Below are positions 710-14,438 of a stretch of 25,402 nucleotides of DNA, piece after piece. Origin of the DNA: a virus; the UHGV virus genome UHGV-1747320; one strand, given 5' to 3'. The translations under genes were made by a program, and so were the position numbers. The notes under the pieces were generated by a model. The model was not told the origin of the DNA. It saw nothing but the letters and a program-made list of their open reading frames with translations, and made no database searches. Numbering within the stretch: position 1 is the first letter of the stretch; every line of letters starts with the position of its first letter.

Positions 710-1021
710 TACCGGTATAGCGTGAGGGATAGTTGCGGCTGCCCACCTGTAATGTGCGGGAAGGAGAGAGACGATCACGTGCAGGCGGACTAACTTACCG
801 CTGGATTCCCTCTGAATGCCCAGCTACAGCGTAATTGTGCCAGACAGCCAGCGGGTCACAATCGATTTCAGTAGGTTTTCGGGGAGAGGATTATTCTGCC
901 CACCAGCCACCTTCGGCCACTAAATCAGAATAATGTAAAAAGTGTACTCGGTACTGAACCTGAAAACTCACTGCCAAAACCACATTCACCGGAATAAAAT
1001 CCTTTTTCGCCTGTGCGTTAT

Positions 1022-1056
1022 TGTGATAATAACACCAACAAGAAAACATGTTGTTT
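1022..1056 (+). promoter_or_regulatory. Early promoter module: extended -10 (TGtGATAAT, 1022-1030), conserved CAACAAGAAAACA leader, palindrome AAACA-tgt-TGTTT (1044-1056)
   Basis: The same module (GATAAT, then about 12 nt, then CAACAAGAAAACA and an AACAA-N-TTGTT palindrome) recurs at 2463-2494 and 2947-2978; related copies at 1509-1540 and 13727-13765. Confidence 0.55.
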
Positions 1057-1068
1057 AAGGATTGCTTT

Positions 1069-1398
1069 ATGTTTGCAAATATCGACATCAACCAAATTAA
1101 GAAATTGACTCAAAAAGAGTTTGACCAGTTCTGTGAGCTGGAAGGTTGGTCTTCCACTCTGATCAATTCGCGGTGGGTGCTTGATCTGATGACTCGTGAT
1201 GATGCACCTGCTTTGATGATTTGCGACATGGGTGAAGATGCTGACTTTATGGATATGAGCGAATTTTGTGTGGACACATACAACCGCAGCCAGAAGTACT
1301 ACTTCACATGCGATAGCGAAAATGACGTGATTTCTAAGGTCTATCTTCACCTCGTCCAGCATTGGGACGTTCAGGAGTTTCTTGAGGTATTCGAGTAA
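1069..1398 (+). CDS. Hypothetical small early protein (about 109 aa, acidic, Cys-containing)
   Basis: Track ORF 1048..1398. ATG at 1069 preferred because AAGGA at 1057-1061 lies 7 nt upstream; the 1048 ATG sits inside the promoter palindrome. Hairpin 1408-1424 follows the stop. Confidence 0.55.
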   Translation: MFANIDINQIKKLTQKEFDQFCELEGWSSTLINSRWVLDLMTRDDAPALMICDMGEDADFMDMSEFCVDTYNRSQKYYFTCDSENDVISKVYLHLVQHWDVQEFLEVFE

Positions 1399-1508
1399 AC
1401 CAATCACAGCCAGCATTGCTGGCTTAACTTAATCTGTAGCCGCAGGGAAGAACCTGCGTATCGCTCATGCGCCTGATCAATATGCTTTGTACCTGTTTTC
1501 TCACTGGT

Positions 1509-1540
1509 ATTATTTACGCCATTGAGAAAACAAGTTGTTT
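1509..1540 (+). promoter_or_regulatory. Promoter-like -10 (TATTAT 1509-1514) followed by palindrome AAACAA-g-TTGTTT (1528-1540)
   Basis: Same spacing between the -10 and the AACAAG element as in the other early modules; perfect 6-bp arms. Confidence 0.5.
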
Positions 1541-1551
1541 ACGGAGTTGTG

Positions 1552-1863
1552 ATGAAAAAATCATTGGTTCTTGGTCTGGACAAAGACCAGAAGCGAAAAG
1601 AGAAGCCTGCGCTGGTTGCTCAATTAACTTTGCTGGACATCGTTGCCAATGGAACCTCTATTCGTCTGTTCCGTGAAACAGCGGTGTCTTTCGATAAAAA
1701 CACCTTTACTCGTTATGTAATGAATGTTCGTCGCCAGCGTGGAAAAGGCTGGGTGGCATTTCAAAGAATGTGGCCGGAACATCAGCTCGAACTGGCTTTG
1801 ATGGAAGTTAACCGCGTGGCCCAGCAAGAAATTCAGAGAGCATCAGTGATGGCAATAGCCTGA
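1552..1863 (+). CDS. Hypothetical small basic protein (about 103 aa)
   Basis: Track ORF 1522..1863 begins at a TTG; the in-frame ATG at 1552 has GGAG at 1543-1546. Lys/Arg-rich N-terminus. Confidence 0.55.
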   Translation: MKKSLVLGLDKDQKRKEKPALVAQLTLLDIVANGTSIRLFRETAVSFDKNTFTRYVMNVRRQRGKGWVAFQRMWPEHQLELALMEVNRVAQQEIQRASVMAIA

Positions 1864-1897
1864 TAATGTGCAAGTGGTAATTAGTCGACAGTACGAC

Positions 1898-1926
1898 AGC
1901 CCCGCCATCCTTACGGGGCTTTTTTG
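1898..1926 (+). terminator. Rho-independent terminator (stem AGCCCCG/CGGGGCT then TTTTTT)
   Basis: Inverted repeat 1898-1904/1914-1920 followed by a T-run 1921-1926, directly after the stop of the 1552..1863 gene. Confidence 0.7.
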
Positions 1927-1930
1927 TATT

Positions 1931-1946
1931 GTAAGTACATACTTAC
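1931..1946. promoter_or_regulatory. Perfect palindrome GTAAGTA-ca-TACTTAC upstream of the 1990 gene
   Basis: Member of an AT-rich GTAAGTA/TAGATA palindrome family also seen at 10401-10419, 13655-13669, 15688-15709, 19115-19132 and 22691-22710. Confidence 0.45.
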
Positions 1947-1989
1947 GACTATAAAATAGAAAAATAACCAAGACACTACGGAGAGTGAA

Positions 1990-2385
1990 ATGACCGTTAA
2001 ACGCGAAAAACTGACAGTTGATGTTTACTATGCCTCTGAAACCGCCGAAGGTAAGAATGTGGCAAAAATCACCGTTGTTACGTACAACACCGAAACTGGT
2101 GCCGAAGTACAGGCCAGTACGATCGTGCGTAAAGGTGATGCCTCCGGCGGCGAGTACGCGACTCAATACCAGTCTATTCTCGATGCAACTGACCCGCTGC
2201 TGCTGAAAATCGAGAACTACTTCCGCCAGGTTGATGAAGAGGTGTTTGAAACCATGATGAGTATGGTTAATTCCGTATTCACCTCCAGCCTGAACACCAG
2301 CACCACCTGGATTGGCCAGTATGGTCTGCGCATTACCTCCGGCATTCCTGCTGACACCTTAATCCCTGAAAGCGTATTCGCTTAA
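1990..2385 (+). CDS. Hypothetical protein (131 aa)
   Basis: ATG at 1990 with GGAGAG 6-8 nt upstream; followed by an intrinsic terminator. Confidence 0.7.
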   Translation: MTVKREKLTVDVYYASETAEGKNVAKITVVTYNTETGAEVQASTIVRKGDASGGEYATQYQSILDATDPLLLKIENYFRQVDEEVFETMMSMVNSVFTSSLNTSTTWIGQYGLRITSGIPADTLIPESVFA

Positions 2386-2394
2386 TCCTCTTTG

Positions 2395-2422
2395 AATGGC
2401 GCGTAAACCGCGCCATTTTCTT
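2395..2422 (+). terminator. Rho-independent terminator (stem AATGGCGCG/CGCGCCATT, loop TAAAC, T-rich tail)
   Basis: 9-bp inverted repeat 2395-2403/2409-2417 followed by TTTTCTT. Confidence 0.7.
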
Positions 2423-2462
2423 ATGCCCGATAACAATTTGTTTTCTGCCTTATCTACACTGC

Positions 2463-2494
2463 GATAATTACAACAACAAGAAAACAACATGTTT
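2463..2494 (+). promoter_or_regulatory. Early promoter module copy 2: TGcGATAAT, CAACAAGAAAACA, palindrome AAACA-aca-TGTTT (2482-2494)
   Basis: Near-identical to 1022-1056; a further AACAA-t-TTGTT palindrome lies at 2432-2442. Confidence 0.55.
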
Positions 2495-2513
2495 ACGCAG
2501 TGAGGATATGCTC

Positions 2514-2795
2514 ATGACTGATTTCACCATTACCACCAAAGCACAAAATGTATTCCTCGAATCATGGCTGGACTTGCCGGAAACAGAACAGCAAGAAATG
2601 GATCATGTGGATTATGACGAGCAGGTAAGCACGCGATTCTTCCACTTTGAGGGATGCGTTTACGACATTGCCGACTTCATGCGAGATGACCGCTTCCCTG
2701 AATGGCACGCAAGCTATCCACTAAACGCCTTTGCCATGCTGATGATCCGTGTGGATGATTCAGGGGATACCATCGACATCGGTCTGCTCCACTGA
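2514..2795 (+). CDS. Hypothetical acidic small protein (about 93 aa)
   Basis: Track ORF 2508..2795; second ATG at 2514 chosen because GAGGA at 2502-2506 is 7 nt upstream. A wobble-containing hairpin without a T-run follows at 2801-2824. Confidence 0.55.
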   Translation: MTDFTITTKAQNVFLESWLDLPETEQQEMDHVDYDEQVSTRFFHFEGCVYDIADFMRDDRFPEWHASYPLNAFAMLMIRVDDSGDTIDIGLLH

Positions 2796-2946
2796 ATAAT
2801 AAGGTCACCAATGCTGGTGGCCTTAAATGACCATCCTGTTCCCCGCAGGCTAAAAACACCAACCTCTTACCTCCAGGCAACCGACAAACCCACCTGTTCC
2901 CGTCCGGCTACCGCAACTTTCCACTTTGACGCCTTATTCGTACAAC

Positions 2947-2978
2947 GATAATTAACGCCAACAAGAAAACAATTTGTT
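2947..2978 (+). promoter_or_regulatory. Early promoter module copy 3: GATAAT (2947-2952), CAACAAGAAAACA, palindrome AACAA-t-TTGTT (2968-2978); TTGACG -35 candidate upstream
   Basis: Same module as at 1022 and 2463. Confidence 0.55.
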
Positions 2979-2999
2979 ATTTACGATAAGGAATTAATC

Positions 3000-3482
3000 A
3001 TGAATTTTATCGCTACTGTAAACGCACCCGCACATGGCAATATCGCTGTAACGTTCTCTGACATTGAAAAACGAGTACTTGGTGCCTGGCGTCACAATGA
3101 GACGGTAGAACTGTCAGAACAAGAAAAATGCATTATTGCACGCGACATCATTGGCAATCGTCGTTACTCGCGGGTATTTGAGAAAGTGTATGTGGTAAAT
3201 TCTGGATTCGGAACGTTTGTTTTCCCGGTACGCTCCGGGCGATTCTGCCAGTCCAAGCTGATTGAGTTCGCTACGCAGATTTCGGTCTGGATTAAAACTC
3301 AATCGTCGTTCAAATTTTCCGACGATGAAGCAGTATCGCAGGGGATGCGGATCGCCAACAATGCAATTAAATGCAAAAACATTACGTATACCGCTGGCGT
3401 TGATACATGGAAACTGTTTTGCGCTAACTTTATGTTGAATGTATACGCAAGCAACCGCATCCACATCCTTGATGGCGTGTAA
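3000..3482 (+). CDS. Hypothetical protein (160 aa)
   Basis: ATG at 3000 with AAGGA at 2988-2992; terminator directly downstream. Confidence 0.7.
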   Translation: MNFIATVNAPAHGNIAVTFSDIEKRVLGAWRHNETVELSEQEKCIIARDIIGNRRYSRVFEKVYVVNSGFGTFVFPVRSGRFCQSKLIEFATQISVWIKTQSSFKFSDDEAVSQGMRIANNAIKCKNITYTAGVDTWKLFCANFMLNVYASNRIHILDGV

Positions 3483-3512: not shown

Positions 3513-3531
3513 CTATAGCCACCAGCTGCCG

Positions 3532-3611
3532 CAGGGAAATTTTCAGAAACGGCGAGGAACGTATTCATGAGCCGACGGGAAACGGCCAGGATTTTTTCGG
3601 GAAACGGCTGC
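3532..3611 (+). repeat. Second cluster of GGGAAACGG-type direct repeats (copies near 3532, 3544, 3576, 3598)
   Basis: Sequences CAGGGAAA, CAGAAACGGCGAGG, CGGGAAACGGCCAGG, CGGGAAACGGCTGC; same consensus as the 577-709 array. Confidence 0.55.
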
Positions 3612-3850: not shown

Positions 3851-4019
3851 ACATAGCAAGACTAAAAGCCAATGATTAACCATACGCTATAGCGCAATAT
3901 AACGCGTTTTAAGCGCGTTAATGTGTTAAGTAATGGGTATGTACTGGTAAGGATATAAAAGCGCGTCTATGGCGTTATTTTGGCGCTTATTTTTATGTTG
4001 TTGGAGTGAGTTAAAGACA

Positions 4020-4047
4020 ATAAAAAACGCGCCATCATTGGCGCGTT
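4020..4047 (-). terminator. Rho-independent terminator for the leftward operon (stem AACGCGCC/GGCGCGTT)
   Basis: 8-bp inverted repeat 4026-4033/4040-4047; the minus strand reads hairpin then TTTTTT. Confidence 0.6.
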
Positions 4048-4065
4048 ATGGTGGGAGTATTGGAA

Positions 4066-4103
4066 ACGAAAAAAGCGCCCATAGTGGGCGCTCGATTTTA
4101 TTT
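4066..4103. terminator. Bidirectional terminator (stem AGCGCCC/GGGCGCT, loop ATAGT) flanked by A-run and T-run
   Basis: Stem 4074-4080/4086-4092; minus strand gives hairpin plus TTTTTT, plus strand gives hairpin plus T-rich tail. The 20-nt core is repeated in inverted orientation at 4571-4590. Confidence 0.65.
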
Positions 4104-5540: not shown

Positions 5541-5840
5541 TTACATCTTTTTTGCATAGTTCCTGATTTCTTTTATTATATATTCCTGAAAACGCTCCGA
5601 GTTTTCGCATTTGTCTTTTGAAGACTCATCAAGTCCCAACTTGCATCCCGCAACGATCAGTCCATCTTGATATGCAGCGCCTAAAGCCATGCTTAGGTCT
5701 AACATGCACAAATCGTAGTCTTCCGCCTTTGAACACAACTCTGTAGAGACACGTTGCACTCGTTCAATGCTATTTTCTTGAGAAAATGCGGAAGAGCTAA
5801 AAATGAAAGTTAAGAATGTGAATGCTGCTACAGTTTTCAT
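5541..5840 (-). CDS. Small secreted protein with N-terminal signal peptide and four conserved Cys (99 aa); paralog of 5916..6212
   Basis: N-terminus MKTVAAFTFLTFIFSSSAFSQ is signal-peptide-like; AGGAT RBS; shares the pattern C-x8-C-M-x2-L-S-x-A ... C ... C-E with the neighbouring gene. Confidence 0.65.
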   Translation of the reverse strand: MKTVAAFTFLTFIFSSSAFSQENSIERVQRVSTELCSKAEDYDLCMLDLSMALGAAYQDGLIVAGCKLGLDESSKDKCENSERFQEYIIKEIRNYAKKM

Positions 5841-5849
5841 ATCAATATC

Positions 5850-5908
5850 CTAAAACGGTAAAATTCGGTCAACCAAATCGAAGAAAACAAGAATTTTTCT
5901 GCCGTCTT
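5850..5908. repeat. Copy B of an about 58-bp direct repeat; the second copy at 6215-6274 encodes the C-terminus of the 187-aa protein
   Basis: Sequence GGTAAAATTCGGTCAACCAAATCGAAGAAAACAAGAATTTTTCTGCCGTCTT differs by about 2 mismatches from 6223-6274. In copy B the reading frame still spells ...DGRKILVFFDLVDRILPF-stop, a gene 3-prime remnant. Confidence 0.7.
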
Positions 5909-5915
5909 CATACAT

Positions 5916-6212
5916 TTATCGGACTGACTCTACAGCCTTACGATTGGTGTCAAAAAGCGTATCAACGAACAGCAATGAAGAGTTGTTCAATTCACATGGT
6001 TCATAATTTTCCACCTGTTCACATAGTTGAGCGGTCTTACCTATGTTTATCCCTAGTTTTACTGCTGCTGAAAGTTGAAACATGCAAACTGGAATATTCT
6101 GAGACGTTGAGCATACGTCATGCATCAGCGACTTAATAATTGCAATATCATCCTTTGCATTGGCTGAAATTGAGTAAACTAAAAATAATGATGTCAATAG
6201 TATCGATTTCAT
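5916..6212 (-). CDS. Small secreted protein with signal peptide and four conserved Cys (98 aa); paralog of 5541..5840
   Basis: N-terminus MKSILLTSLFLVYSISANA; weak RBS; conserved Cys spacing shared with the paralog. Confidence 0.6.
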   Translation of the reverse strand: MKSILLTSLFLVYSISANAKDDIAIIKSLMHDVCSTSQNIPVCMFQLSAAVKLGINIGKTAQLCEQVENYEPCELNNSSLLFVDTLFDTNRKAVESVR

Positions 6213-6214
6213 AA

Positions 6215-6274
6215 CTCAAAAAGGTAAAATTCGTTCAACCCAATCGAAGAAAACAAGAATTTTTCTGCCGTCTT
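6215..6274. repeat. Copy A of the about 58-bp direct repeat (overlaps the stop and last about 19 codons of 6216..6779)
   Basis: See 5850-5908. Confidence 0.7.
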
Positions 6275-6779
6275 TCAACTTAAGTGTGACTAGGCAGGCA
6301 TCAACGCCATCTGACGTTCCCTCAATTTCGCGGCCGTCTGCCATGTAGACCCTTATAGATTGGCCGTTTTGATAAGCCTTGCGACATATCTTAAAAAAAT
6401 CACGACGTGATGGCTGGTTGTCTACATAGTCAGGGTGTATTGTTAGTCTCCCTTTGAAATCGTAATCAATGCCATCAATTACGCCTGATTCAATTGTGCT
6501 AATGCGCTCAAGTGGGAGCCTTATACGATTTTCTTTGTCAAATGGAGTTGGACAAAGGTCAACTTTGTTACGAGATGACATGAGACCATAAACGTACATG
6601 CAAAACACTTGGCCGTCTTCGAGAGTGACTCTTACAGGAAATTTAGCCCTCCGCCAGAAGAGCAAGGTGCGTTCAGCATGTTCGTAGTCTCGCGGCCATA
6701 CTTCAGCCGGTATGCCGTAGGTGATATCTTTCGTCGTCATATCATTATAAAGTGGTTGGCAATATGTCCATTGTACCAT
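6216..6779 (-). CDS. Hypothetical protein (187 aa; possible alternative start at 6740)
   Basis: Long ORF without recognisable catalytic motifs; the C-terminal stretch SIRVYMADGREIEG...LVTLKLKDGRKILVFFDWVERI looks beta-rich; no clear SD for either start. Confidence 0.55.
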   Translation of the reverse strand: MVQWTYCQPLYNDMTTKDITYGIPAEVWPRDYEHAERTLLFWRRAKFPVRVTLEDGQVFCMYVYGLMSSRNKVDLCPTPFDKENRIRLPLERISTIESGVIDGIDYDFKGRLTIHPDYVDNQPSRRDFFKICRKAYQNGQSIRVYMADGREIEGTSDGVDACLVTLKLKDGRKILVFFDWVERILPF

Positions 6780-8512: not shown

Positions 8513-8791
8513 TTACGGCAACCTGCTCAGTATTTCCTCTAGATCTTTTTTTGTCATATTGGAGTTTTCATAGATGCGCATGATTTTCTCACGCGTCTTA
8601 GCGGAAACCCCAACGGCAGATGTAACTTTGTCAAATTCAGCCATAGTCATCGTCTCCAGAATGGCATTGATAACTTCAGCCTTAGACATCTTGATTTTTT
8701 TCTCTTTGAGTTTTATTTGAAATTTTCCAAGTTTTTCATTGGCCTTATCAGACAATGCCACTTGGCAATAAGTTGTTTTCTTTTCGCTCAT
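8513..8791 (-). CDS. Small protein (92 aa), possibly ribbon-helix-helix-like DNA-binding; translationally coupled to the helicase
   Basis: ATG at 8791 lies 2 nt after the helicase stop (8794-8796). The fold guess is from a strand-helix-helix-like pattern (TYCQVAL ... SKAEVINAILET) only. Confidence 0.55.
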   Translation of the reverse strand: MSEKKTTYCQVALSDKANEKLGKFQIKLKEKKIKMSKAEVINAILETMTMAEFDKVTSAVGVSAKTREKIMRIYENSNMTKKDLEEILSRLP

Positions 8792-10353: not shown

Positions 10354-10400
10354 AAACCTCTTTCCTTAGTGCCTTTTGTATGTTATTTGGCTATTATAAT

Positions 10401-10419
10401 AAGTAAGTGATTACTTAGT
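10401..10419. promoter_or_regulatory. AT-rich imperfect palindrome (TAAGTAAGTGATTACTTAG) in the divergent promoter region between the helicase and ParB-like operons
   Basis: Follows a TATAAT hexamer at 10395-10400; member of the GTAAGTA palindrome family. Confidence 0.4.
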
Positions 10420-13342: not shown

Positions 13343-13609
13343 ATGACGTTAACCGATAAACAAAAGGACATCATCAAAACGCTCAATCTCGGTTATGAGC
13401 GAGGTCATCTACTTGATCTGGACGAATTGCTTGAAGTTTTGCCGTACAAGACAACCAAGCAAAGTATCCAGTTCTCAATTCGCGCTCTGATAAAAAAGGG
13501 GCTGGTGGAGAAAGGGCATACGCGCCAACGCAGTGACAATCGCTATCACCGCCGAACTCTTGGGTTAACCACTTTAGGTCGAGCCAAAGCGAAGTTACTG
13601 GTGATGTAA
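13343..13609 (+). CDS. Small winged-helix-like DNA-binding protein (88 aa)
   Basis: AAGGA RBS; helix-turn-helix-like segment TKQSIQFSIRALIKKGLVEK and basic C-terminus. Confidence 0.6.
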   Translation: MTLTDKQKDIIKTLNLGYERGHLLDLDELLEVLPYKTTKQSIQFSIRALIKKGLVEKGHTRQRSDNRYHRRTLGLTTLGRAKAKLLVM

Positions 13610-13633: not shown

Positions 13634-13688
13634 CCTGCTTCTGTATATATAAATAATAAGTAACTTATTAAATATATACGGAAGCAGG
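13634..13688. repeat. About 55-bp near-perfect AT-rich palindrome (CCTGCTTC...AATAAGT-A-ACTTATT...GAAGCAGG)
   Basis: Outer arms CCTGCTTC (13634-13641) and GAAGCAGG (13681-13688) with the perfect core AATAAGTAACTTATT (13655-13669); sits between the ParB module and terS. Confidence 0.65.
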
Positions 13689-13726
13689 CTTAATAAGACA
13701 TGCCCAGACCTAATTAAACAACCCAG

Positions 13727-13786
13727 AAAACAAGTTGGTTAGAAAATGCAGTAAACAAGTTGTTTTAGAGCGCATGGACGCGCTCT
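13727..13786 (+). promoter_or_regulatory. Regulatory region upstream of terS: two AAACAAG-TTG(G/T)TT palindromes (13727-13740, 13753-13765) and hairpin AGAGCGC/GCGCTCT (13767-13786)
   Basis: The same palindrome as in the early promoter modules; the hairpin is flanked by a direct repeat GTTTTAGAG. Confidence 0.5.
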
Positions 13787-13805
13787 GTGTGTTTTAGAGG
13801 GATCT

Positions 13806-14438
13806 ATGACGGTCGAAAAAGACGAGGTAAAAACTCGCCTGACACCAGCGGAGTGGGCCGAAGCTGAAGCCAAATGGACGTCAGGCGAATATACACTCTC
13901 AAAGCTGGAGGAAGAGTACGGCATTCGTCGTGAAACACTCTCCAGACATTTCAAAAAGCGAGGATTAGAGAAAGGCGCGGACTCTGTTGGGAAGATGGTT
14001 CGTGAGTCTCTTAAATCTGACGCAGAGCTTCGCGCTAAAGCCCGTGCGGAAAAGATAGAAGAACGTCGTACACGTTATGACGGCTGGGCGTATGCGTTGG
14101 GGCAGATGGTGATGGTCGAAGTCACTACGGCCAAACGTGAGGGTAAGCCTTTAGGGGCGATTGAGGATTCTCTCAAGAGCTTACAGAGAGCCAGTAATAC
14201 CCTTGCAAAATGCTTTGAAGTTTCGTCCAAAGCATTGGGCATGGATCATGCGGAAAATGACGAGGAAGAAATTCCGAACCTGGTATTTGGTGAGCTTACG
14301 CCTTCCCAGGTGGCGAAATTACGTCAGGAAGACGACGAGCCTGAAATCATCGATGACGAATTGCTTGAGACGTTGGAAGAAGAAGCTCTAAGCGAATTTG
14401 ATGCGACAGATGATGGAAGTGAAGGGGAGGACGAATAA
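13806..14438 (+). CDS. terS: Terminase small subunit (210 aa)
   Basis: Position immediately upstream of and overlapping the large terminase (TAATG); N-terminal HTH-like region and a strongly acidic C-terminal tail. Confidence 0.75.
   Translation: MTVEKDEVKTRLTPAEWAEAEAKWTSGEYTLSKLEEEYGIRRETLSRHFKKRGLEKGADSVGKMVRESLKSDAELRAKARAEKIEERRTRYDGWAYALGQMVMVEVTTAKREGKPLGAIEDSLKSLQRASNTLAKCFEVSSKALGMDHAENDEEEIPNLVFGELTPSQVAKLRQEDDEPEIIDDELLETLEEEALSEFDATDDGSEGEDE

Follow-up and report, generated by a model that had tools for sequence, protein, structure and literature searches.

Several described systems place one short site, or one short cassette, before many transcription units of the same genome. 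In the plasmid prophage P1, the sites of a single regulator, C1, are dispersed over about 100 kb and overlap the promoters of many operons. The KorA/KorB regulons of RK2 and other IncP plasmids coordinate replication, partition and transfer genes; their short palindromes recur at or near the -35 or -10 elements of one replicon's promoters. At lac (O1/O3), gal (OE/OI) and deo, identical dyads on the same helix face flank the core promoter. T4-type phages repeat a standard promoter/stem-loop cassette (PeSL) before small single-gene units in a variable region; to our knowledge, PeSLs have no shared operator dyad. Another system acts on RNA: Salmonella FljA prevents translation of the fliC mRNA, according to the passage of PMC2652032 that cites Bonifield & Hughes 2003 and Yamamoto & Kutsukake 2006.

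The DNA considered here, a window of 25,402 nucleotides from UHGV-1747320, was first taken for a plain phage; it is about 97% identical to Escherichia phage Cyrano and belongs to an SSU5-like phage-plasmid, a type akin to SSU5 and pHCM2 (PMC9928086). SSU5-like phage-plasmids are frequent in clinical Enterobacteriaceae, and the literature searched contains no description of the mechanism that silences their lytic genes. A palindrome repeated through the window is most likely, to judge from its sequence and placement, the DNA binding site of one regulator controlling lytic genes including terS, a regulator for which there are candidates only.

The core of the motif is a single palindrome of 13 bases, AAACAA-N-TTGTTT, with the central base count fixed at one. 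The initial annotation described AACAA and TTGTT arms around a variable spacer of one to three bases; this variability is an artefact, as the spacer looked variable because 5-mers were used to define the palindrome. The copies at 1044-1056 (AAACATGTTGTTT) and 2482-2494 (AAACAACATGTTT) represent one 13-mer, each with a single mismatch. The sequences reported earlier, modules at 1022-1056, 2463-2494 and 2947-2978 and palindromes at 1528-1540, 2432-2442, 13727-13740 and 13753-13765, are all present where they were placed, and the observation is confirmed as real and larger than was then stated. Seven sites with at most one mismatch occur in the window against 0.15 expected, a number reached in 0 of 100 shuffles; the looser pattern AACAA-N(0-3)-TTGTT gives four matches (0.24 expected), and the 13-mer CAACAAGAAAACA is found exactly three times. 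Five relatives, about 300 kb in all, hold 33 perfect sites, 31 with one mismatch and 24 with two. By chance, two-mismatch sites would far outnumber perfect ones, and the mismatch spectrum shows that selection acts on the 13-mer itself. In the site alignment, information content is symmetric between positions 1-6 and 8-13, with an uninformative centre. That is, half-sites at a fixed spacing form a 6+1+6 dyad, as in the operator of a symmetric regulator. An exact-pattern scan of IMG/VR with AAGAAAACAANTTGTTT gave mostly single chance matches among the matches listed, and a literature search for the palindrome found primer coincidences only.

Four putative promoter-operator modules, all on the + strand, carry the motif. 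Three were noticed at the outset and all three are present; the total is four, with 1487-1548 as a further full copy. The repeat search joins 1003-1064, 1487-1548 and 2441-2502 in one family, and 1025-1055, 1509-1539, 2463-2493 and 2948-2978 in a second. Module 1 (1003..1064) has an extended -10, TGTGATAAT, at 1022-1030, a conserved segment, CAACAAGA, at 1036-1043, and its operator copy at 1044..1056, 3' of the -10 and at a predicted position of about +7 to +19; the gap between -10 and palindrome is 13 nt by coordinates, as in most relatives, and the same site is found in Cyrano at 95801. The gene that follows (1069..1398, +; 109 aa, phrog_7645) has no assigned function, and the ATG at 1048, within the palindrome, is probably not its start. 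Module 2 (1487..1548) reads TGG-TATTAT (TGGTATTAT) at 1505-1513 and has a perfect operator copy, AAACAAGTTGTTT, at 1528..1540; its gene (1552..1863, +) encodes 103 aa of phrog_5125, function not assigned. Module 3 (2441..2502) has the extended -10 TGCGATAAT at 2460-2468 and its one-mismatch copy at 2482..2494. Its gene (2514..2795, +; phrog_1845, function not assigned) most likely starts at the second ATG, at 2514, 7 nt past GAGGA; the phrog_1845 profile match starts at residue 3 of the ORF that opens at 2508. Module 4 (2925..2990) has TTGACG at 2926-2931, GATAAT at 2947-2952 and, at 2967..2979, the operator copy AAACAATTTGTTA with one mismatch; it precedes a 160-aa gene of phrog_1641 (3000..3482, +), also with no function assigned. 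The description of the -10 elements as extended holds for modules 1 to 3, where TGn (at 1022, 1505 and 2460) adjoins a near-TATAAT hexamer as in sigma-70 extended -10 promoters; it fails for module 4, which is without TGn (2944-2952 is AACGATAAT). A generic promoter scan of the window listed none of the module promoters, because their -35 elements are poor.

Module 3 has in addition an upstream operator copy, TAACAATTTGTTT, at 2431..2443, overlapping the -35 region and 51 bp upstream of the downstream copy. As it follows a terminator-like hairpin at about 2400-2424, it should lie outside the module 3 transcript. Its counterpart is kept in Cyrano, the Klebsiella phage-plasmid, the metagenomic L007 and SSU5 (2 mismatches); copies matching it come from five lineages, and the changes among them preserve the consensus.

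What was first presented as three early promoters plus terS is a genome-wide set, with about 18 copies in Cyrano and 20 in SSU5, which there also fronts parA, the replicative helicase, cobT and nrdB. The motif turns up as well in the parts that were read of two Klebsiella lineages, of a metagenomic relative and of Yersinia pestis pMT1. Almost every copy lies between genes, and the positions often match across relatives: in Cyrano, with only 13% of the genome intergenic (87% coding), 15 of the 18 sites are so placed. The same 13-mer fronts the same genes (terS, parA, helicase, cobT, nrdB and the small-gene block) in Cyrano, SSU5, Klebsiella pJN2-26, L007 and pMT1; it does so too in the divergent Klebsiella plasmid pL3995-2, where 40 kb contain 12 perfect copies and no other 6+1+6 palindrome more than once. 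An invariant 13-bp site stands before replication, partition, nucleotide-metabolism, accessory and packaging genes, which makes regulon prediction possible in any relative and provides a basis for reporters of the plasmid-to-lytic switch.

This distribution bears on the supposition that the motif has no dedicated binder at all, and that one promoter cassette was copied by duplication or recombination in the manner of the T4-type mobile cassettes. In favour of this, a cassette measures about 65 bp, which is long; the units flanked hold one gene each and are delimited by terminator-like hairpins; and the region is a variable one, with a gene content that changes from relative to relative, much as in the PeSL arrangement. 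But the palindrome, unlike the PeSLs, also occurs away from cassettes (at terS, helicase, nrdB and parA) and in inverted orientation, and it remains perfect even next to flanks that have diverged; with a mismatch spectrum that reflects selection on the 13-mer, copying as the sole explanation is very improbable. The constant spacings described below could nevertheless be due in part to the shared ancestry of duplicated cassettes, and not to selection.

The invariance of the motif across relatives and hosts, while most element proteins diverge, might suggest instead a host protein conserved across Enterobacteriaceae, IHF for example, since this would explain the identity of the site in elements of E. 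coli, Salmonella, Klebsiella and Yersinia. The motif does fit seven of the nine specified positions of the IHF consensus WATCAANNNNTTR, in both orientations. That consensus, however, is matched by 0 of the 7 window sites (its sole match in the window lies elsewhere); at position 3, 58 of 59 sites have A and none has the T of ATCAA; and positions 8-10, free in IHF sites, are among the most conserved here. We know of no enterobacterial regulator with an AAACAA-N-TTGTTT dyad, and a host binder of this kind is hardly to be expected.

Relative to the promoter, the palindrome takes two positions: 13-14 nt past the extended -10 (TGnGATAAT), at about +7 to +19 as estimated from the sequence, or over the -35 region and outside the transcript. 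In the relatives, 23 downstream-type sites have a good -10; in 18 of these the offset is 13-14 nt, and TGn is present in 13 of the 18. From site to start codon there are anywhere between 12 and 41 nt, whereas the interval to the -10 is constant. Where upstream and downstream copies are both present they are 51 bp apart, and the complete palindromes of the upstream type overlap with the -35 region. Several modules, those of pL3995-2 above all, have no complete palindrome but the upstream copy; their leader retains only AAACAA, ahead of the ribosome-binding site. Roughly half the downstream-type sites (those of terS, helicase, nrdB, parA and cobT) are without a convincing -10 at the standard offset; there the site could be a roadblock, serve a different promoter or act on RNA.

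We think it probable, though well short of certain, that AAACAA-N-TTGTTT serves one element-encoded repressor, a symmetric dimer or tetramer, as its operator in double-stranded DNA; the binding, the repression and the transcription starts are what we infer from the arrangement. The earlier proposal of a common operator for a dimeric regulator gains from the fact that the motif behaves as a DNA operator should, in its excess, intergenic placement, conservation and fixed promoter positions. The reiterated cassette of about 65 bp would then be read as follows: a terminator-like hairpin belonging to the gene before; in some cases an operator over the -35 region; the extended -10, TGnGATAAT; an initial transcribed sequence of 13-14 nt, of the CAACAAGA type; another operator, at about +7 to +19; a ribosome-binding site; and a single gene. 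Occupation of one or both operators would block the binding or the escape of RNA polymerase. Paired operators, about five helical turns apart, would bracket the core promoter, and strong-looking promoters would in this way be kept silent during plasmid maintenance.

Such a repressor would resemble P1 C1 in having one site scattered before many separate operons of a plasmid-prophage, and would differ from it in that the C1 operator is 17 bp and asymmetric (ATTGCTCTAATAAATTT) while the site here is a 13-bp dyad; as an identity for the site, the C1 operator was rejected, with 0 matches here at up to three mismatches. The KorA/KorB regulons are similar in the recurrence of short palindromes at the promoters of one replicon. 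The KorB site is likewise 13 bp with a single central base, and only this format is common to the two: its sequence, TTTAGC(G/C)GCTAAA (TTTAGCSGCTAAA), differs and gave 0 matches at up to two mismatches. Proteins with a ParB N-domain are encoded in the window and nothing ties them to the palindrome; the two genes show background expression in the lysogen (PMC9928086). With lac, gal and deo, the promoters that have both copies, 51 bp apart, share identical dyads on the same helix face about the core promoter. The spacing is shorter than in those systems and both sites lie inside the RNA polymerase footprint; looping here is putative.

A second class of explanation places the motif in RNA. The simplest, a leader hairpin, was thought unlikely from the beginning, and that rejection stands; the argument from a variable spacer does not, and the grounds are instead that leader folds are no better than those of shuffles (z -1.1 to +0.5) and that 0 of 24 double-mismatch sites in the five relatives are compensatory. 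In an Rfam search at E up to 1, nothing in the modules matched. A more specific proposal is that the transcribed motif, AGAAAACAA-N-UUGUUU, is bound by a FljA-family protein, with translation blocked and mRNA decay promoted in the way that Salmonella FljA acts at the fliC 5' leader. A member of PF03614 is indeed encoded 3-5 kb from the modules (6216..6740, -; E = 4e-80, 268 bits against a cut-off of 24), and its model predicts two Sm/Hfq-like barrels and no helix-turn-helix, a fold compatible with RNA binding. The gene, linked to the motif, is present in every relative examined and by itself in 831 plasmid records, including plasmids of S. Typhi and Y. pestis pMT1. As with FljA and fliC, many copies lie in leaders, a few tens of nucleotides before the start codon, and many occupy short intercistronic gaps with no obvious promoter. 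The Salmonella fliC leader, moreover, has CAAGTTGT, the same as the motif's centre (primer in PMC5056187), and this stretch is the exact point where fliC departs from the fljB leader (read from L132), which FljA must spare.

Against this, complete palindromes also stand outside the transcribed leader, upstream of the -35 region or after terminator-like hairpins, and in some modules such a copy is the only complete one. Dyad symmetry is meaningless for a single-stranded RNA site where no pairing is supported, and the site keeps a fixed distance to the -10 and not to the start codon. FljA acts on one host mRNA, whereas there are at least about 18 sites here; the motif is invariant, while the FljA-family protein falls to 38% identity in pL3995-2 and to 35% against FljA itself; and the E. 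coli fliC leader has CAACGACTTG in place of the motif. FljA-type control at the RNA level is accordingly unlikely. Doubtful too, and slightly more so, is the larger idea that palindrome or transcript is the natural target of tandem Sm-fold proteins of the FljA family, global repressors of phage-plasmids of which Salmonella FljA would be a domesticated copy. If true, FljA-type proteins would repress elements of the SSU5/pHCM2/pMT1 type globally through an Hfq-like fold on nucleic acid, the repressor of Salmonella flagellar phase variation would derive from them, and the fliC leader would have kept CAAGUUG as a recognition core.

To return to the DNA operator, it is also placed outside the modules, before the packaging genes. 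The motif copies reported there are present in tandem. Operator 1 (AAACAAGTTGGTT, one mismatch; 13728..13740), preceded by CCTAATTAAAC, a weak -10-like sequence only, is conserved in Cyrano, SSU5, pMT1 and the relative L008; operator 2 (13753..13765), 25 bp from it, is perfect, with the same sequence as the module 2 copy. A GC-rich hairpin, AGAGCGC-ATGGAC-GCGCTCT, followed by GTGTGTTTT, terminator-like (13767..13795, +) and recovered in the predicted fold of 13721-13808, sits between the operators and the ribosome-binding site of terS (13806..14438, +; CYRAN_1 match), the small terminase subunit gene that opens the packaging/head operon. The tandem pair ahead of this hairpin would bring the packaging operon under the same regulator.

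Expression in the lysogen agrees with repression. In RNA-seq of an LF82 lysogen of Cyrano, the module genes and terS have values of 5.7-25.5 against a median of 9.8 (PMC9928086 supplementary file 2); expression is at background even with -10 elements near consensus. A leader-binding protein that triggers decay would likewise leave little mRNA in the lysogen.

For the binder itself, the candidates rank as follows: an 88-aa winged-helix-like protein, then a 92-aa ribbon-helix-helix (RHH)-like protein, then something outside the window. The first is encoded just upstream of the terS operators (13343..13609, +); its matches to Sta1, Lrs14 and the LexA DNA-binding domain are weak and stay below threshold, its identity is 76-89% in every lineage, and it keeps the stretch TTKQSIQFS.RALIKKGLVEK identical in a divergent plasmid (L130). 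The homologues found are all at least 75% identical. The second (8513..8791, -), with an N-terminus, TTYCQVALSDKAN..., that reads as RHH-like, evolves fast, and its putative DNA-facing residues differ between lineages; the conserved sequence of the winged-helix protein makes it the better fit. PDB sequence searches with both were empty or insignificant, and the AF2 model of the 92-aa protein (pLDDT 54, from an 8-sequence alignment) was too poor for a fold search. These two and the FljA-family protein co-occur in the same set of SSU5-like phage records, so presence or absence cannot separate them. The palindrome, used as bait for DNA-affinity capture, offers a concrete handle on the master regulator. 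The 5' end of the RHH-like gene holds CAATAAGTTGTTT (8766-8778), a possible autoregulatory site; it is not conserved in SSU5, Klebsiella or L007 and was taken as chance.

In the Cyrano lysogen the RHH-like gene, CYRAN_117, reaches about 149 in one LB replicate (median 9.8), and the winged-helix-like gene is at background, 7.8 (PMC9928086), which fits a regulator of the lytic phase better than a maintenance repressor. The same DNA site might serve a lytic-switch protein, the winged-helix-like one for example, that late in infection shuts off the strong cassette promoters and activates or anti-terminates at the weak terS promoter, silence in the plasmid state being owed to another factor such as H-NS or another repressor. 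This protein is the only candidate with conservation that matches the invariance of the motif; its gene adjoins the tandem terS operators, its operon ends just before terS, and no good -10 accompanies the terS site, which has the terminator-like hairpin after it. In class II activation, activators work from sites near -38, and the upstream-type copy is centred near there. The cassette promoters, on the other hand, look self-sufficient (TGn, and five of six bases in the -10), leaving activation unneeded, and a site at +7 to +19 is in a repressing position. A lytic switch is possible but unlikely, and repression remains the reading we prefer.

The positions of the motif also correct some annotated gene starts in Cyrano: at least two of its three non-intergenic sites look like the result of mis-set starts.

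One way to understand the short palindrome AAACAA-N-TTGTTT, which recurs in the promoter modules of this element, is as the DNA operator of an element-encoded regulator; this explains the data best, and the regulator most probably represses the cassette promoters. The first 4 kb of the window match Escherichia phage Cyrano (OV696614.1) at 96.8% identity over 100% of their length, and also match three further E. coli records; Salmonella phage SSU5 and Klebsiella phage-plasmids match this part more weakly. In E. coli LF82, Cyrano is the phage-plasmid pLF82, present in ~5.5 copies per cell, and genotoxic stress induces it (PMC9928086). Mapped onto Cyrano, the window has the small-gene block CYRAN_104-111 at one end and packaging and head genes at the other; between them lie two gene groups, one on the minus strand (helicase, small proteins and a FljA-family gene) and one on the plus strand (ParB, ParB, ABC ATPase, ATPase).

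All the sequences listed in the initial annotation are present where it placed them. Its three promoter modules stand, but comparison of repeats in the window brings the total to four: one repeat family comprises 1003-1064, 1487-1548 and 2441-2502, and a second, shorter one comprises 1025-1055, 1509-1539, 2463-2493 and 2948-2978. The spacer of one to three bases does not hold, as copies in register always have a single central base. Under a 5-mer definition the spacer seemed variable because 1044-1056 (AAACATGTTGTTT) and 2482-2494 (AAACAACATGTTT) carry one mismatch apiece, adjoining the centre of the palindrome.

The palindrome is real, highly non-random and kept across the SSU5/pHCM2/pMT1 group. 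With at most one mismatch the window has seven sites (1044, 1528, 2431, 2482, 2967, 13728 and 13753) versus 0.15 expected, and no shuffle had more than one. The Cyrano and SSU5 genomes were assembled from pieces and scanned: allowing one mismatch, 18 sites turn up in Cyrano, 15 of them between genes although 87% of the genome is coding, and SSU5 has 20, many ahead of the same genes. Outside the small-gene block, the Cyrano sites precede terS, the small terminase subunit gene (two sites), parA, the replicative helicase, cobT, nrdB, a TciA-like gene and others. Of the three ‘coding’ sites, at least two are explained by doubtful annotated starts. The starts given for CYRAN_105 (95805, with its ATG inside the palindrome; window 1048) and CYRAN_110 (97903, upstream of the promoter module; window about 2470) are probably wrong; ribosome-binding sites and PHROG profiles point instead to 1069 and 2514 in the window, respectively. 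The identical 13-mer with identical flanks occurs in Klebsiella phage pJN2-26, in a metagenomic relative of 110 kb (L007), in a chromosomal remnant (L008) and in Y. pestis CO92 pMT1. The divergent Klebsiella plasmid pL3995-2 has, in 40 kb, 12 perfect 6+1+6 palindromes with the AAACAA half-site; no other half-site occurs there more than once. Five relatives pooled give 33 perfect sites, 31 with one mismatch and 24 with two, the reverse of a chance distribution; therefore, the 13-mer itself is under selection.

Sites fall into two orientation classes. The downstream type reads aGA, then AAACAAnTTGTTT, then A; 18 of the 23 such sites with a good -10 in the relatives lie 13-14 nt past it, 13 of these 18 with the TGn of an extended -10. 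All four window modules conform, their -10 hexamers lying at 1025-1030, 1508-1513, 2463-2468 and 2947-2952. If transcription starts ~7 nt past the -10, the palindrome would span about +7 to +19; its end lies 12-41 nt upstream of the start codon. In the upstream type the sequence is the reverse complement (T, core, TCt) and lies over the -35 region, often directly 3′ of the preceding gene's terminator-like hairpin. Modules with both types have them exactly 51 bp apart (for example window 2431/2482, Cyrano 93114/93165, SSU5 88319/88370, pL3995-2 10624/10675); additional pairs at this spacing have one weaker partner.

A second perspective, also raised in the initial annotation, supposes that the palindrome is a 5′ leader element, read as RNA. 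Four observations favour recognition as double-stranded DNA instead. The dyad is exact, with mirror-symmetric information content and an uninformative centre. Signs of RNA structure do not appear: compensatory changes are found in none of the 24 double-mismatch variants, leaders fold no better than shuffles, and an Rfam search gives nothing at the leaders. The distance from palindrome to -10 is fixed, that to the start codon variable. Finally, complete palindromes are retained outside the transcript: in several modules the upstream copy is the only complete one (among them SSU5 85602; Klebsiella 21773; L007 4395; pL3995-2 9614, 13505, 15874, 16403 and 17535), the leader having just AAACAA followed by the ribosome-binding site. 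The counterpart of the window copy at 2431 is kept in five lineages, with changes that preserve or improve the consensus.

Promoters with TGn and five of six matches in the -10 are not normally expected to be silent; repression is therefore the simplest reading of expression in the lysogen. In the published LF82 transcriptome (overnight LB; PMC9928086, supplementary file 2), Cyrano genes have a median of 9.8; values are 7.1 for terS, 7.5 for CYRAN_101, 12.8 for CYRAN_105, 12.2 for CYRAN_106, 5.7 for CYRAN_108, 6.7 for CYRAN_110, 25.5 for CYRAN_111, 7.8 for cobT, 21 for the helicase and 50 for parA. An untranslated mRNA that decays rapidly would give the same picture.

Motif, conservation, dyad and promoter geometry support the proposal of a common operator; for the regulator itself the data supply three candidates. 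Their genes are found in one and the same set of SSU5-like phage records, so that presence or absence is uninformative among them. The 88-aa protein (13343-13609), whose gene lies immediately 5′ of the terS operators, matches three families of winged-helix regulators (Sta1, Lrs14 and the LexA DNA-binding domain) weakly and below threshold. It is 76-89% identical across all lineages, and its segment TTKQSIQFS.RALIKKGLVEK has not changed even in pL3995-2, conservation that matches the invariance of the motif; its mRNA in the lysogen, however, is at background level (7.8). The 92-aa protein (8513-8791, minus strand) resembles ribbon-helix-helix proteins at its N-terminus and is well expressed in the lysogen (~149, one LB replicate). 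Its structure model (pLDDT 54) leaves that fold unconfirmed; identity is 36-58% in SSU5, the Klebsiella phage-plasmid and L007, no homologue was detected in pL3995-2, and the presumed DNA-facing strand residues differ among lineages.

The third candidate, a FljA-family protein (6216-6740, minus strand; PF03614, E = 4e-80), has a model of fair confidence (pLDDT 79) with two Sm/Hfq-like barrels, pointing to a protein that binds RNA or single strands. FljA is reported to stop translation of fliC mRNA (PMC2652032); CAAGTTGT, the centre of the motif, lies within the Salmonella fliC leader (sequence from a published primer), at the exact point of divergence from the fljB leader. However, some motif copies lie outside transcripts, the E. 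coli fliC leader reads CAACGACTTG, and the protein is divergent (38% identity in pL3995-2, 35% to FljA). The 3′ end of its gene (caac.caatcgaagaaaacaagaatttttctgccgtctt) is duplicated (5870-5915 and 6236-6280), and two small minus-strand ORFs with signal-peptide-like starts (5541-5840, 5916-6212) lie between and beside the copies; the arrangement suggests cassette insertion through recombination at the duplicated end.

A system with one short site in many promoters of one replicon is of a kind already well known: P1 C1 with its dispersed operators, on a large plasmid/prophage, and KorA/KorB of RK2 follow the same logic. Neither consensus is present, and the dyad does not fit an IHF site. A literature search found no paper describing the motif or a regulatory circuit of SSU5-like elements. 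The main value lies in a direct path to the master regulator of these widespread phage-plasmids; the FljA link is the sole part that might prove surprising.

The same operator would also stand at the entrance to the packaging operon. Tandem palindromes at 13728 and 13753 in the terS leader are 25 bp apart, a spacing found likewise at terS in Cyrano, SSU5, pMT1 and L008; a GC hairpin with a T-run (13767-13795) and then the ribosome-binding site follow. This hairpin resembles a terminator and, like the operators 5′ of it, belongs to the leader; read-through or anti-termination may be needed for late expression. Between the 88-aa gene and the operators sits a large AT-rich inverted repeat (13634-13688; CCTGCTTCtGTATATAT ... 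ATATATACgGAAGCAGG, with AATAAGTAACTTATT at its centre), with a possible role in regulation, as a second motif, in termination or in packaging; a related dyad, AAGTAAgtgaTTACTT (about 10395-10418), occurs in the 65-bp divergent helicase/ParB region.

The window has further features. A degenerate module copy at 417-455 (GATAAAACACGAAGA-AAACAGCATGTAT; palindrome with three mismatches), ~40 nt upstream of a terminator-like hairpin (485-512), could be a decayed cassette or a short-RNA promoter. Three ~23-nt direct repeats (ACCATCCTGTTCCCCGCAGGCTA and variants; 28-30-nt spacing) occupy 2830-2910, past the module 3 gene and ahead of module 4. At 4019-4085, over a terminator-like hairpin, Rfam gives a weak match to Hrs1 (32 bits, gathering 56.4, E = 0.011), probably by chance. 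GGGAAA(A/C)GG-type repeats in two clusters (540-720 and 3530-3610; ~17-35 nt spacing) flank the small-gene block and look like iterated protein-binding sites; in Cyrano they are distant from repA. Positions 1-360 are strongly CA-rich (A 42%, C 34%, G 14%, T 11%), 211-381 being conserved at 81% in SSU5, and the stretch probably runs on to the hairpin at 485-512. Relatives have a palindrome copy ahead of the stretch at the matching position, where the window begins; in L007 it is a tandem pair 25 bp apart. The stretch may therefore be transcribed, subject to the same regulation, into a long CA-rich RNA that lacks structure and is, at a guess, a sponge for an A/C-binding RNA protein.
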